Positions 4,154 through 59,780 are shown, counted from the stretch's first letter. The stretch is 64,000 nucleotides of DNA from Scenedesmus sp. PABB004 (GCA_014905635.1 JABVCE010000034.1:186001-250000), one strand, 5' to 3'. A program made the numbers and translations. The notes: generated from the sequence alone by a model not told the origin.

Positions 4154-7100
4154 ATGGACGAGAGCAGCTACACCACCGACGTGTTCAGGATATGGTGAGC
4201 CCGCTGCGCGCGCGGAGCGAAGCGCGCGGGCCCCGGCGGGCCCCGGCGAGCGCGGGCGAGCGCGGCATCGCTCGCCCGCGACCCCCGGGGCCGCCAGATC
4301 GCGCGCCTGCGCGGCTCCGCGGCCGCAGCGCACAGCCGTGGACGGCCTCCCGGCCCGGCGGCGCGCGCGGGGCGCCGGCGGCGGCGGCGCGCGCGCGCAG
4401 CAGCGGCGCCGCCTGGCGGCGCGCGGGCGGTGCCGCCTCAGTGCACGCCCGCCGCGCGCCGCCGGCAGGTACTGCAAGCGCATAATGTGCTCGCGCCGGG
4501 ACAAGCACGACTGGCAGGTGCGGGCGCGCGCGCGCGCGGCGATCGGCCCGCCCGAGCAGCGCGCGCCGTTGCGGCACACGCCCTACGCCCGCCCGCGTCC
4601 CCGCCGCCCGCCCGCCCGGGCCCGGCCGCGCCAGGCCTGCCCCTTCTACCACAGCGGCGAGAAGGCGCACCGCCGCGACCCGCGCACGCACGGCTCCAAC
4701 CTGTGCCCCTCCATCGAAAAGGCGCGGCGCTGGGAGCTGCAGCGGCGGCGCGCGGTGACGCCTGGCGCCCGGGCGCCCCCGGCCGACCCCCGCACGCGCC
4801 GCACCGCGCCGCCCCGTCGCAGACGGGGGAGTGCCCGCACGGCGAGAAGTGCCAGAACGCGCACACCGTGTTTGAGGCCCGCCTGCACCCCAACAAGTGC
4901 GCGCCCGTGCTCCGCGCCGCGCCGCGCCGCGCCCGACCCGGCGCTGCCGGCGTGCCGCCCCCCAACCACCCGCGCCGCGCCGCCCGGCGCGGCCGTGCCA
5001 GGTACCGCACGACGCTGTGCAGCGAGGGCCTCAACTGCAGCCGCAAGCTCTGCTTCTTTGCGCACACCGTGGACGAGCTGCGCACCGACGTGAGCGTGCC
5101 GCAGGTGCCGGTGGGGTACGACGAGTACATGGCCCTGCAGCCCCAGGTGCCCACGCCGCACAGCGGGCACAGCAGCCACCACAGCGGCCACCACGGCGGC
5201 GGCCACGGCGGCGGGCGCCACGAGCCGCGCCACGACAGCCGGCACGAGCCGCGCGGCGAGCCGCGCGGCGACCCGGGCGGCGGCGGCGGCGGCGGCGGGG
5301 GCCACGTGCCGCACCAGCCATACGCCCTCATCGGCGGCCCCGGCGGGCCGCCCAGCTCGGCGGGCAGCAGCGGCGGGCACATGCCCGACGGCCACGCCGG
5401 CGGCGGCGGCGGCGGGGGCGGCGGCGGCGGCTACTACGTGCGCAAGAGCGACACAGGCGGCGGCGGCGGCGGGCAGCCCATGGTCATGTACCTGCAGGGC
5501 GCGCCGCCGCCGGGCGCGCAGCTGCTTGCGGCGCCGCCGGGCGCCGCGTTTGCCGCGCCCGGTGGCGTCGTCTACGGCGGCGGCGGCGGGCCAGTGTTCG
5601 CGCCGCCGAGCATGGCCGGCGGCGGCGGCGGCGGCGGCGGCGGCGGGGGACCGCCGTCCAACACGACCATGCTGCTGCAGCAGCAGCACCACGCGGCGCA
5701 GGGCGGCGCGCAGACGCCGTACGGCAGCTACGGCCAGGGCGCGCCGCCGGGGCAGCAGGGCGGGCCGCAGGGCACGGGCGTGTTCACGTCGACGCAGCTG
5801 CTGCAGGCGCTGCAGGGCGGCAGCGGCGGCAGCGGCAGCAGCGCGTCGGGCGCGCCGTACGCGCAGGCGCACCAGCTGGGCGGCCGCGGCGGCAGCGGGC
5901 CCCTGCCGCCGCAAGGGGCGCAGGTCATGGTCGCGCAGCTGCCGCCGGGCGTGATGCGGGGGCCGCCCGGCGGCGGCGGCGGCGGCGCGGCGGCGGCGGC
6001 GGCGGCGGCGGCGGCAGCTTCAGCAGCCAGACGTCGGGCCGCGGCGGCGGCGACAGCCACCCCCAGCAGCAGCAGCAGCACCACCACCAGCAGCAGCAGC
6101 AGAGCGGCCCTCCGCCGCCGCAGCCGCCGCCGCAGCCGGCGCAGCAGCAGGTGCACGAGGCGCCCATGCCGCCGCCGCGGGCGGCGCTGCCGGCCAGCAC
6201 CGCGGCGGCCAGCCCCAGCGGCGGCGCGTCGCCCCACCCGGCGGCGGGCGGCGCCACGGCGGCCATGTTTGCGGCGATTGCTTCGTCCGACGGCCGCCCC
6301 GCGCAGCCCGCCAACGGCAGCCGCGCGCCCGCGCTGCAGGGGCCGGGCGCGCGCGGCGTCCCCGCGGCGCGCGGCAGCGGCTCCGGCGGCGGCGGCCCCG
6401 CGAGCGGCGGCGGCGCCGCCGCGGCCGCGGCGGCACTCGCGGCGGCCGAGGCGAAGCAGCAGAAGCTGCAGGACATGCTGCGCGCGGCGCTGAACGAGAT
6501 CACGGTGCTCAAGTCGCGCGCGCACGCGGCCGAGGAGAAGCTGGCCGCCGCAGAGAGCTACATGTCCAAGGCGGCGCTGCAGGCGCTGCTCGCGGCCGGC
6601 GCCGCGCCGCGCGCCGGCGGCGCCCGTGCGGCGGGCGGCGGCGAGGAGGGCGCCGCGGCCGAGGACAAGGACGGCGCCGTGGCCGAGGGCAAGGACGGCG
6701 CCGCGGCCGAGGGCAAGGCCGGCGCCGCCGCTGACGGCAAGGCCGACGCCGCGGCGACCGCGCGGGCGGCGGCCGACGACGAGCCGGTGGACGTGGGCCT
6801 GCTGCCCGTCAGCCTGGCCATGCTGGTGGGCGCTGGGCTGCGCGGCTGGGCTGCGCTGGCTTGCTCGCGAGTCGGCGGGTCGGCCCGCGCGCGTGCGCTG
6901 ACACCCCCCCCCCTCCCTCCCATCCTTTTGGGCCCGCGCCGCAGCCCGACTCGCAGCTCGCCGTGGTGCTGCCCAAGGCCATGTCGGTGCGGGACGTGCG
7001 CGAGGTCGTGCGCGCGGTGATGAGCCGCGGCGGCGTCACCGTGAGTCTGGGCGCCGCTGGGCGCCCGCCGCTGGGGCTGGGCCCGCCGCCGCCCGGCAGC

Positions 7101-56952: not shown

Positions 56953-59780
56953 ATGGTGGCCACCACGTGCTCGTCGCCCGCGGCGTTCGGGGGCAAGGCC
57001 GCGCAGCTCGCCGCGCTCGGCCTGAGCGCGCCGTCGCTCGGCGCCCAGCGGCCTGCGCACTGCGACCAGGCGGTGAGCGTCATCGTTCCAGCGGGCGTGA
57101 CGACCAGCGCGGGCAGCGGGCAGCAGGCAGCGCGAAGCGGGGAGCGCGGCCGGCAGCTGCAGCGCGCGCGGGCGGCGCCCCGGCGCGCTGCGGGCCCCGG
57201 GCGCCCCGGGCGACGCTCCCGACGGCCACCGAGCACGCACGCACGACGCCGCACGCGCCGCGGCCGCGCCGCGCGCCGACGCACGACGCCGACGCTGCTC
57301 GCGCGCCGCCGCCGCCGCCGCAGGCGCAGGCGCCGCCGCTGGCGCTCAGCGCGACCTGGCGCGCCCCCACGCCCGTGGGGTGTGGTCTGCAGAACCTGGG
57401 CAACAGCTGCTTCCTCAACGCCGTGCTGCAGTGCCTCGCGCACACGCCGCCGCTCGCCAACGTCTGCCTCTCGCGCGCGCACTCGCGCGCCTGCGCGGCG
57501 CCCCAGGGCGACTGCATCTGCTGCACCGTGGAGGCGCAGGTGCGCCGACGCGGCGGCAGCGCGAGGGCGAGGGGCAGCAGGCGGCGGGGCGCGGGAGGCC
57601 GGCGGCGCCGACGCGCGCCGCGCCGCGCCGCCGCAGGTCTGCCGCATGCTGCAGCGGGGCAGCGGCGCCGCGGACACACCGGCGGGCCTGCACCGCACGC
57701 TGCACGCCATCAACCGCGGCTTTGTGCGGGGGCGGCAGGAGGACGCGCACGAGCTGCTGCGCTGCCTCGTTGACGCGATGGAGCGCTGCCTGCTGCGCGC
57801 CGCGGGCGGCTACGACCCGCGCAAGCCGCCGCGGGTGGGCAAGCCGCTGCGCCGCGCCGCCGCCGCGCCGCGCGCGGCAGCCGCAGCCGCAGCCGCAGCC
57901 GCAGCACAGCGCGCCCGCCGCCTCACCACTCTGCCCGCCCGCCCGCCCGCCCGCCCGTCCGCACGCGCCGCCGCTGGCGGGCGCAGCACCCGCGCACGCT
58001 CGTGAACGCGGTGTTTGGCTGCATCCTGCAGAGCCGCGTGCTGTGCCTGGCGTGCGGGCACGCGAGCGCGAGCTATGACCCCGCCATGGACCTCAGCCTC
58101 GACCTCTGCGGCGCGCGCAGCGTGGAGGACGCGCTCGGCCGCTTCACTGCCGTCGAGCGCCTCGACGGCGACAACAAGTACCGGTGAGCGCCCGACGCTG
58201 CGCCGCCGCCGCCGCTGCTGTTGCGCCGCCGCCGCCGTTGCGCGCTGCCGTGCCGCAGCGGCTGCCGAGCCGCGGCCCGCGCGCGCTGCGGCCCGAGCGC
58301 AGCGCGCGCGCCGCCGCCGCCGCCGCCGCCGCAGGTGCGAGGGCTGCAAGGGCCTCGTGGCGGCGCACAAGCAGATCAGCGTGTGGGACGAGCCCAACGT
58401 GCTCGTGCTGCAGCTCAAGCGCTTCACGCCGCTCGGGAGCAAGATCGGGCGCGACGTGTCGTTTGACGTGTCGCTCGACCTGGCGCCCTTCATGTCGTCC
58501 ACGCGGCGCCGCGCCAGCAGTGGCGCCGGCAGCGCCGGCAGCGCGGGCCTGCTCAACAACTGCGGCGCCGGCGCCAGCACCGGCGCGCCGAGCGGCGGCA
58601 GCAGCGCGAGCAGCAGCGGCGGCGCCAACGATGCGCGCGGCGGGTGCAGCGGCGGCAGCAGCAGCGGCAGCGGCGGCTCGCCGCCGCCGGGCGGCGCGGG
58701 GCCGCCGCAGTACCGGCTCGCGGCCGTGCTGGTCCACGCGGGGCTGAGCCCGCACAGCGGTCACTACTACGCCTACGTGCGCGACGGCCAGCCGCCCGCG
58801 GGCTACTGGCACTGCGCAAACGACAGCCAGGCGCGCCGCGCCGCGACGTGTGCTGCGTCGCGCTGTGTGTGTGCTGCGCCGTGCGCGCGCGCCTGCGCTG
58901 GGCCGCCCGCGTCCGCGCCTGCCCCGCCCACCCGCCCACCCGCCCACCCGCCCACGCCCCGCACGCCTGCCTGCGCCCGCGCCCACGCCCCCAGGTGTAC
59001 CGCGTGGCCGAGTCGGTCGTGCTGTCCCAGCAGGCCTACCTGCTGTTCTACGTGCGCGTGACCATGAAGCCACAGGCGCCCCTGCCGCAGCACAGCGACG
59101 CTCAACCCGGCGGCGGCGCGGCGGGCGCCAAGCGCGGCGCCGCGTCCGCGCTCGGCGCCGGCGCCGAGCAGCGGCGGCCGGGCGCGGCGTTTGGGCCGCA
59201 GCTGCCGCCGCACCTCACCGCCAAGCGCGCGCGCCTGCAGGAGCAGGAGCGCGGCGCGTTCGGCCCGCAGCTGCCGCCCGGCTGGCGCCCGGCCGACGGC
59301 GGCGGCGGCGCGGCGGCACAGGGTTCGGCGGCGGCGGCGGGCGGCGAGCAGCCGGAGCCGGGCAGCAGCACCGCGCCGTTCTTCACCTGGGCGGCGCAGC
59401 CGCAGCCGCAGCCGCAGCTGCGGCAGCAGCAGCCGCAGCAGCAGCAGCAGCAGCAGCAGCAGCAGCAGCAGCAGCAGGAACAGGCGGTGCCGGGCGCGTG
59501 CCGCCTGGTGCCCGCGGTCGACGGCGGCGCCAGCCTGAGCGCCGCCGAGATGTCCGCGAGCGCGGCGGCGGCGCTGGCGGGCATGCGGCCGTGGCTCGCG
59601 CGCGAGCTCGCGGCAGCCAAGGCGCGCGGCGTGAGCGTGCAGGGCAGCCGCTCGACGGTGCTGCCGCAGTTCCGCGCGCACCCCGACGTGCGCGAGGCCG
59701 CGGCGGGCCTGTTCCTGCGCTGCCTCGCGCACCTGGGCGTGCCGCTCGCGGCCGCCGCGCCCGCGGGCGCCGGGGAGTGA
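56953..59780 (+). CDS. Ubiquitin-specific protease (C19; USP36/42/UBP23-like)
   Basis: Cys box GLQNLGNSCFLNAVLQCL, GRQEDAHELLR, LDGDNKYRCEGC, PNVLVLQLKRF, His box VLVHAG..HSGHYYAYVR, NDSQV, QQAYLLFYVR. Confidence 0.93.
59424..59477 (+). repeat. (CAG)n polyglutamine tract
   Basis: Within the last USP exon. Confidence 0.9.

Follow-up and report, generated by a model that had tools for sequence, protein, structure and literature searches.

Background

GC-AG introns make up on average 1.2% of the introns in 121 plant genomes (PMC6310983), and in expressed sequence tags of Chlamydomonas 532 GC-AG introns stand against 25,053 GT-AG introns, or 2.1% of 25,585 (PMC2846911). In the haptophyte Emiliania huxleyi, 56% of curated junctions are GC-AG, nine of them confirmed by reverse transcription PCR, and this was ascribed to a genomic guanine plus cytosine (G+C) content of 65% (PMC4028052). 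Among the pelagophytes, the share is 14-17% in Aureococcus and 14% in Pelagomonas, whereas Aureoumbra, with a low G+C content, has 0.32% (preprint 10.1101/2024.10.30.620910). The abundance of GC-AG introns in the GC-rich Emiliania, Aureococcus and Pelagomonas was attributed by the authors to base composition (PMC4028052; 10.1101/2024.10.30.620910). We describe a 64 kb stretch of DNA from the chlorophycean green alga Scenedesmus sp. (glucoliberatum) PABB004 (JABVCE010000034.1:186001-250000, hereafter the window), in which about one intron in seven is predicted to be GC-AG, and which is a green-algal case of this phenomenon already known in GC-rich haptophyte and pelagophyte algae.

The PABB004 assembly, GCA_014905635.1, comprises 39.8 Mb with 78.5% G+C and 7,092 genes, according to PMC12571836, which contains neither 'GC-AG' nor 'splice'. 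Our literature search found no report of abundant GC-AG introns in Sphaeropleales, although the PABB004 genome paper (doi 10.1111/jam.15311) may mention them. A preliminary description of the window, made from the sequence alone, had proposed 18 GC-AG introns and set them against a baseline of about 1% for plants and animals. Its placement of the DNA among the Sphaeropleales was right, and its baseline is borne out for plants (1.2%; PMC6310983), but it overlooked the known exceptions, Emiliania, Aureococcus and Pelagomonas.

GC-AG introns required by conserved proteins

The window has a G+C content of 78.8%, a composition at which open reading frames (ORFs) are uninformative. Coding and intron sequence are nevertheless readily told apart, because codon positions 1, 2 and 3 have 64%, 47% and 94% G+C and introns 82% (81.6% in the verified set). 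The evidence base consists of this one window and of protein comparison. Homologous proteins were placed on the DNA with our own protein-to-DNA spliced aligner, which has explicit intron states and was run with three donor modes (GT and GC, GT only, or any dinucleotide). Our own small gene finder combined a 3-periodic Markov coding model with donor and acceptor matrices and length terms, and was trained on the verified structures. Further support came from the continuity of Pfam profiles and PDB chains from exon to exon and from the enumeration of GT-AG alternatives within 60 nucleotides (nt).

At all 18 sites named in the preliminary description the DNA reads AG/GC on the stated strand (the slash marks the junction), and at 16 it reads AG/GCGCG. 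Twelve of the 18 (4722, 13136, 19914, 20658, 20949, 22373, 31860, 34342, 41147, 42049, 54001 and 58831) are confirmed, on the basis of protein comparison, as GC-AG introns:

4722..4822, plus strand: GC-AG intron in a tandem CCCH zinc-finger gene; 101 nt, phase 0, donor aag/GCGCGG
12908..13136, minus strand: GC-AG intron in the gene for V-ATPase subunit B (VHA-B), at EGQ/IY; 229 nt, phase 0, donor cag/GCGCGC
19747..19914, minus strand: GC-AG intron in the nucleobase-ascorbate transporter gene NAT1; 168 nt, phase 2, from annotated protein P0122 and orthologues P0128, P0130 and P0131
20520..20658, minus strand: GC-AG intron in NAT1, at YNE/NIG; 139 nt, phase 0, from spliced alignment
20807..20949, minus strand: GC-AG intron in NAT1, at VE/S/LGD; 143 nt, phase 2, donor gag/GCGCGT, from spliced alignment
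22276..22373, minus strand: GC-AG intron in NAT1, at IFQ/GGSF; 98 nt, phase 1, from spliced alignment
31716..31860, minus strand: GC-AG intron in a UBC2/RAD6-type E2 gene, at SIQ/SLL; 145 nt, phase 0
34342..34491, plus strand: GC-AG intron in a CYP37-like chloroplast cyclophilin gene; 150 nt, phase 2
41147..41387, plus strand: GC-AG intron in the ankyrin-repeat gene ANK3; 241 nt, phase 1
42049..42155, plus strand: GC-AG intron in ANK3, at TPLQ/AAT; 107 nt, phase 0
53902..54001, minus strand: GC-AG intron in ARL2, at LAQ/ALDL; 100 nt, phase 0
58831..58994, plus strand: GC-AG intron in a USP36-like deubiquitinase gene, at NDSQ/VYRV; 164 nt, phase 0

Removal of these twelve stretches restores conserved, collinear proteins, and no GT donor does equally well. 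At each of the sites, GT-AG pairs within 60 nt are either absent in frame or alter, delete or insert at least two conserved residues.

The exons of VHA-B, NAT1 and ANK3 are about 100% identical to annotated PABB004 proteins, which come from one contig of 315,182 nt. The 13 exons of the annotated VHA-B protein P0064 (V-type proton ATPase subunit B 1) match the window at about 100%, and the 12 introns between them consist of 11 GT-AG introns and the GC-AG intron at 13136. The same junction was obtained from five VHA-B orthologues; restricting the aligner to GT donors costs 188-247 score units in four of the five and 20 for the insect protein P0002. When intron ends were left unconstrained, the junction moved by at most 4 nt in four of the five and was split in two for P0002, and within 60 nt there is no frame-compatible GT-AG pair. 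Alignment of the annotated NAT1 protein, P0122, and of three orthologues (P0128, P0130, P0131) yields a consistent set of 16 to 17 introns. Four of these are GC-AG, and the penalty for GT donors only is 284-367. The annotated ANK3 protein, P0132, maps with 1445 matches, no indel and 12 introns, two of which are GC-AG; by hand count the ankyrin repeat period is 34 residues across the 41147 junction and 33 across that at 42049. Other ankyrin homologues (P0133-P0140) are unspliced ORF fragments whose spliced alignments are messy, but which are of use below for reading the intron start in relatives. As the GenBank proteins of VHA-B, NAT1 and ANK3 already use seven of the GC-AG introns, these were evidently accepted by the annotators' pipeline.

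The five remaining junctions are set by domain profiles and protein structures. In the zinc-finger gene, the exon downstream of 4722 begins at position 12 of the zf-CCCH profile (junction 11/12) and the spliced peptide reads C-X8-C-X5-C-X3-H, while the sole GT alternatives within 60 nt alter or replace 2-11 residues. The four exons of UBC2 span UQ_con positions 1-44, 46-74, 76-105 and 106-139, which places the GC junction at 31860 exactly at 105/106, and GT alternatives there remove at least nine residues. The ARL2 exons cover positions 21-55, 59-93, 97-136 (residues 1-40 of 42) and 140-173 (from residue 2) of the Arf profile, so that the junction at 54001 is collinear at about 138/139. In the alignment to USP36 (8bs9), the exon before 58831 stops at residue 323 and the next one begins at 324. 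The exons flanking 34342 align to 9lh4 residues 215-239 (upstream) and 249-329 (downstream), the junction lying between 240/241 and 243 with one split codon, and no frame-compatible GT-AG pair occurs within 60 nt. The N-terminus of P0130, used as a cyclophilin homologue, skips this region. A short-peptide Pfam search, with E-values up to 10, returned no match for the C-terminus of the USP, the second half of the BTB protein discussed below, the short-chain dehydrogenase (SDR) tail or the CYP37 exon halves.

By itself, the donor heptamer is no evidence for splicing, because AGGCGCG is not over-represented in the window (84 copies on both strands, compared to 95 +/- 9 in shuffled sequences); what is decisive is its location at exon ends that homology requires. 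Since the probability of finding the heptamer at any single position is about 7 in 10,000, twelve exact matches to homology-defined exon ends are not due to chance.

Some of the genes examined here have features of their own. Three copies of the plant-type telomere-like motif CCCTAAACCCT are present in the window, where none is expected (12967-12977, 13335-13345 and 13662-13672, minus strand); they are in sense orientation and occupy the 3' portions of three successive V-ATPase B introns, within degenerate CAGGGTT[T]AGGG repeats. Some introns, such as one of this gene (13292-13525, 234 nt, GT-AG) and the BTB candidate at 16727-16816 (90 nt), have lengths that are multiples of three and are stop-free in the exon frame; at this G+C content, read-through ORFs can therefore hide introns completely. 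The protein P0130, from Scenedesmus sp. NREL 46B-D3, has a CYP37-like N-terminus fused to a NAT permease. The counterparts of the two parts in the window, 33155-35016 (plus strand) and 18941-22883 (minus strand), are 11 kb apart on opposite strands, which suggests that the fusion reflects either a chimeric gene model or that the NREL 46B-D3 genome is rearranged.

GC donors occur in the strongest donor context

The verified set comprises 72 introns, 60 with GT and 12 with GC donors. Based on 49 of the GT donors, the GT consensus is A (47%) and G (86%) at the exon end, followed by GT, G, C (69%), G (92%) and C or G. The GC donors mirror this GTGCG[C/G] pattern, as the preliminary description had recognized, and all twelve read AG/GCGCG, with C at +6 in ten. 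The claim in the same description that exonic AG precedes every GC donor likewise holds for 12 of 12 confirmed sites, compared to 23 of 60 GT donors (Fisher's test, 5e-5). For the full AG/GYGCG context the difference is sharper still (12 of 12 GC versus 17 of 60 GT donors; Fisher's test, 3e-6). Expressed as shares, GC accounts for 12 of the 29 verified donors that have the optimal context and for none of the 43 in weaker contexts. In other respects the two groups are alike: the median intron length is 144 nt for GC and 139 nt for GT introns, and all twelve GC introns end in CAG, as do 56 of the 60 GT introns. This pattern also bears on the quality of the assembly, because random T-to-C errors at the second intron position would place all twelve next to an exonic AG with a probability of (23/60)^12 = 1e-5 and are thus an unlikely source of the GC donors. 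Donor-like heptamers in coding sequence (AGGCGCG, 2 versus 1.65 expected; AGGTGCG, 1 versus 0.56) give no signal of avoidance, although such numbers have no power.

Frequency in the window

To count every intron within the conserved part of each gene, eight genes were tallied, among them FtsH and kinesin as controls not flagged in the preliminary description:

VHA-B: 1 GC-AG of 12 introns
NAT1: 4 GC-AG of 17 introns
FtsH: 0 GC-AG of 11 introns
ANK3: 2 GC-AG of 12 introns
CYP37: 1 GC-AG of 6 introns
UBC2: 1 GC-AG of 3 introns
ARL2: 1 GC-AG of 4 introns
kinesin: 0 GC-AG of 3 introns

Together, 10 of 68 introns, or 15% (Wilson interval 8-25%), are GC-AG, which differs from the 2.1% of Chlamydomonas at P = 1.6e-6. 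Ab initio parsing of the whole window gave 19 of 93, 15 of 95 and 15 of 99 at prior probabilities of 12.5%, 2% and 0.2% for GC donors, counts that leave out exons outscored by the opposite strand and exons below 8 nats and that include the false calls at 21415 and 54742 described below. The share of about 15% put forward earlier is thus borne out for this window.

The same intron positions in relatives

Database fragments from relatives offer a view of the same introns, as many are unspliced ORF calls on contigs of related organisms and continue past the exon into intron sequence. Where the junction is in phase 0, the codon that opens the intron then reads as valine if the donor is GT (GTN) and as alanine if it is GC (GCN). 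Three of the twelve sites could be read in this way:

After EGQ in VHA-B: Val in 5, Ala in 1 (P0009); PABB004, Ala
After YNE in NAT1 (20658): Val in 6 of 6, Ala in 0; PABB004, Ala
After TPL[Q/H] in ANK3 (42049): Val in 8 of 8, Ala in 0; PABB004, Ala

At the VHA-B junction, rows with K (P0002) and I (P0116), neither Val nor Ala, were set aside. Over the three sites, 19 of 20 read-through fragments start the intron with GTN, which indicates that these three GC donors occupy old intron positions with GT in relatives. The remaining fragment, P0009, is an ORF of 91 amino acids whose VHA-B exon is 100% identical to that of the window and whose intron also starts with GCN (EGQ/ARAGF), the rest of the intron sequence being different. 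It points to a second organism or allele that shares the GC donor.

Weaker and rejected candidate sites

Two further sites of the preliminary description are plausible GC-AG introns and three others are possible ones, resting on ab initio parses:

16727..16816, plus strand: probable GC-AG intron in a BTB_2 gene; 90 nt, in frame, stop-free, donor cag/GCGTGT
55908..56018, plus strand: probable GC-AG intron in a short-chain dehydrogenase gene; 111 nt, in frame
17525..17652, plus strand: possible GC-AG intron in the same BTB gene as 16727; 128 nt, in the ab initio parse at all three GC priors
23610..23744, minus strand: possible GC-AG intron in the gene for an FtsH-type protease, downstream of the Peptidase_M41 domain; in the ab initio parse
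39468..39578, minus strand: possible GC-AG intron in a gene of no recognised family; 111 nt, in the ab initio parse at priors of 12.5% and 2% but not 0.2%

At 16727, the upstream exon ends at position 51 of the BTB_2 profile, and the match of the whole ORF stretches 121 residues over 89 profile positions; a rival GTGAGC donor 4 nt downstream, used with another acceptor, costs one residue. At 55908, adh_short positions 4-121 are matched upstream and, weakly, 148-176 downstream, with the YxxxK region in the downstream exon; the Ser-to-Tyr spacing also fits the usual layout of SDR proteins. No homology extends across the junction at 17525, and the exons at 39578 have no Pfam match. At 23744, the M41 profile ends four residues ahead of the donor and the orthologues disagree on the stretch. 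The last of the 18 sites, 18468, is unsupported as a GC donor and was chosen by no parse. The gene finder at the 12.5% prior picked 17 of the 18. In all, the list of the preliminary description is upheld for twelve, plausible for two more, backed by ab initio parses for three and dropped for one.

The gene finder placed a false GC donor at 54742 in ARL2, inserting six residues into the P-loop region; the true donor, GTACGT at 54757, gives RLLM-V-GLDNAGK. This first ARL2 intron (54657-54757, minus strand) has the sole verified donor without G at +3. The GC donor called at 21415 belongs to a shadow exon and is likewise false, and GC 'introns' that the aligner introduced in the unconserved N- and C-terminal tails of FtsH were inconsistent and were discarded. 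In DNA with 79% G+C the GC dinucleotide is ubiquitous, and in poorly conserved stretches both the aligner and the gene finder made false GC calls (54742, 21415 and the termini of FtsH and NAT1). Such calls count in favour of an artefact, as do the five sites out of 18 that have a rival GT donor or lack homology support (16727, 17525, 18468, 23744 and 39578).

Other genes of the window

A multi-exon gene at 35480-38814 (plus strand) has a weak match to Alginate_lyase (E-value 0.022), and the gene finder assigned to it up to five GC donors (36066, 37324, 37521, 38482 and 38817), of which 37324 alone survives at the 2% prior and none at 0.2%. The longest verified intron, in FtsH (26371-27086, minus strand, 716 nt), contains a long TG/CA-type microsatellite that reads as a CVCVCV run in one frame. 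At the end of the window, 62549-64000 (minus strand), the ab initio parse gives a two-RRM gene with five GT-AG introns that runs off the edge; from its peptide, it presumably resembles the U1A/U2B'' small nuclear ribonucleoprotein.

Origin of the GC donors

The explanation that we favour, and hold to be probable, is that these are ordinary U2-type GC-AG introns which have become unusually common owing to the base composition of the genome. A pressure from AT to GC, whether mutation bias, biased gene conversion or both, would convert T to C at donor position +2; the resulting C would survive only where the remaining donor positions match the consensus AG/GYGC, extended by G and often C at +5 and +6 (AG/GYGCG[C]); and in this optimal context the donor would stay recognisable to a normal spliceosome. 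As the GC donors are confined to the best context, they resemble classical U2-type GC-AG compensation and not a general relaxation of donor recognition, which had been proposed in the preliminary description and is not supported, GC being absent among the 43 donors in weaker contexts. Which way the change went, what caused it, and that the splicing machinery is unaltered are our inferences from these patterns.

Several observations weigh against this explanation, or narrow its reach. The introns are predicted from DNA and protein comparison. The share was measured in one 64 kb window, and the tally is not free of bias, because its three largest contributors (VHA-B, NAT1 and ANK3) had been flagged beforehand. 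Of the read-through fragments, which otherwise have GT, one, P0009, has GC like PABB004. In verified sequence, AGGCGCG is left unused as a donor at 2 sites in exons and 4 in introns, so that context beyond the heptamer must matter. Finally, with a canonical U1 5' end, AG/GCGCGC would form four Watson-Crick pairs and one wobble pair; because this pairing is poor, some co-adaptation of the machinery may exist.

This last point leads to the alternative that the splicing machinery of the lineage is itself altered, at the U1 5' end, the U6 ACAGAGA box, U5 loop 1, U1C or Prp8, such that C at +2 is read like T, perhaps jointly with GC pressure. We regard this as unlikely, although some observations speak for it. 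The consensus GYGCGC, whether with GT or GC, would fit canonical U1 only at -2, -1, +1 and +5; the 49 GT donors that were verified first all have G at +3; and GC makes up as much as 41% (12 of 29) of the donors that have the optimal context, where selection against C must therefore be weak. Yet the restriction of GC to that context is the opposite of what a general relaxation should produce, unrelated GC-rich algae show similar or greater shares of GC-AG introns, and an altered machinery is not required, base-composition pressure with consensus compensation being more parsimonious and relatives carrying GT at the same intron positions. No Rfam family scored above threshold in the 64 kb of the window, and no snRNA (small nuclear RNA) gene lies there. 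A bolder version, in which PABB004 would have by far the highest GC-AG share known in green plants, about 15% genome-wide, would lie close to the limit of what an unmodified spliceosome can tolerate, and would have donors pairing so poorly with canonical U1 that the U1 5' end, U6 or the U1C/Prp8 contacts have co-evolved with the 78.5% G+C genome, seems to us somewhat more doubtful again; if true, the alga would allow the effect of base composition on the recognition of splice sites to be studied as a natural experiment.

GC donors might also be kept by selection, as weak sites that permit regulated intron retention or alternative splicing, a role suggested for such introns in animals and plants. 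GC donors have been linked with alternative splicing (PMC3488318) and much intron retention is reported in Emiliania (PMC4028052), and three of the candidates here are in frame (16727, 34342 and 55908, with 90, 150 and 111 nt), of which at least 16727 is stop-free. We nevertheless consider it improbable, given that the introns reside in housekeeping genes with unrelated functions, that retention of most of them would shift the frame or break conserved domains, and that GT is found in relatives at three sites. Lastly, that the GC donors are artefacts of mis-set junctions, assembly T-to-C errors at +2 or unspliced sequence, to which the false calls described above lend some colour, is very improbable and largely refuted for the twelve confirmed introns, whose junctions independent proteins or profiles define with single-residue precision and, for seven of them, are used in the GenBank proteins of three genes.

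Implications for annotation

If compositional pressure on ordinary GC-AG introns is the right explanation, the window adds a green-algal example of base composition shifting the donor dinucleotide. It also supplies a context rule, by which GC occurs only within AG/G_GCG, and three GT-to-GC switches at orthologous sites, from which selection on position +2 can be gauged. On a practical level, gene finders that accept only GT donors, or GC donors only on RNA hints, would mis-set about 1 in 7 introns in this genome and thereby damage conserved genes, for example those for V-ATPase B, UBC2 and ARL2. Other green algae of very high G+C content probably face this risk too, and PABB004 annotations have already been reused for annotating other algae (PMC13248705, which cites the PABB004 genome paper).

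Comparison with known systems

Introns of the U12 type can also have a start other than GT. They are recognized by the donor box [A/G]TATCCTT, whereas the donors described here read GCGCG followed by C, G or T, none containing TATCCTT, and the last 25 nt of the confirmed introns hold no TCCTTAAC-like branch box. Of the species tabulated in PMC2846911, the closest is Chlamydomonas, which has neither U12 snRNAs nor U12 introns. The U2-type GC-AG introns of plants and animals are alike in their GC start, AG acceptor, ordinary length and position, and in the stronger match of the remaining donor positions; they differ in that the share here is about ten times higher and that the compensating consensus is AG/GCGCGC and not GCAAGT. 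Emiliania huxleyi, Aureococcus anophagefferens and Pelagomonas calceolata likewise combine high G+C with an AG acceptor and a GC-AG share of at least 14%, a share that PABB004 reaches within this window. These are a haptophyte and two pelagophytes, whereas PABB004 is a chlorophycean green alga with a still higher G+C content (78.5%) and a share of GC-AG introns, as estimated from this window, that is far below the 56% of Emiliania.

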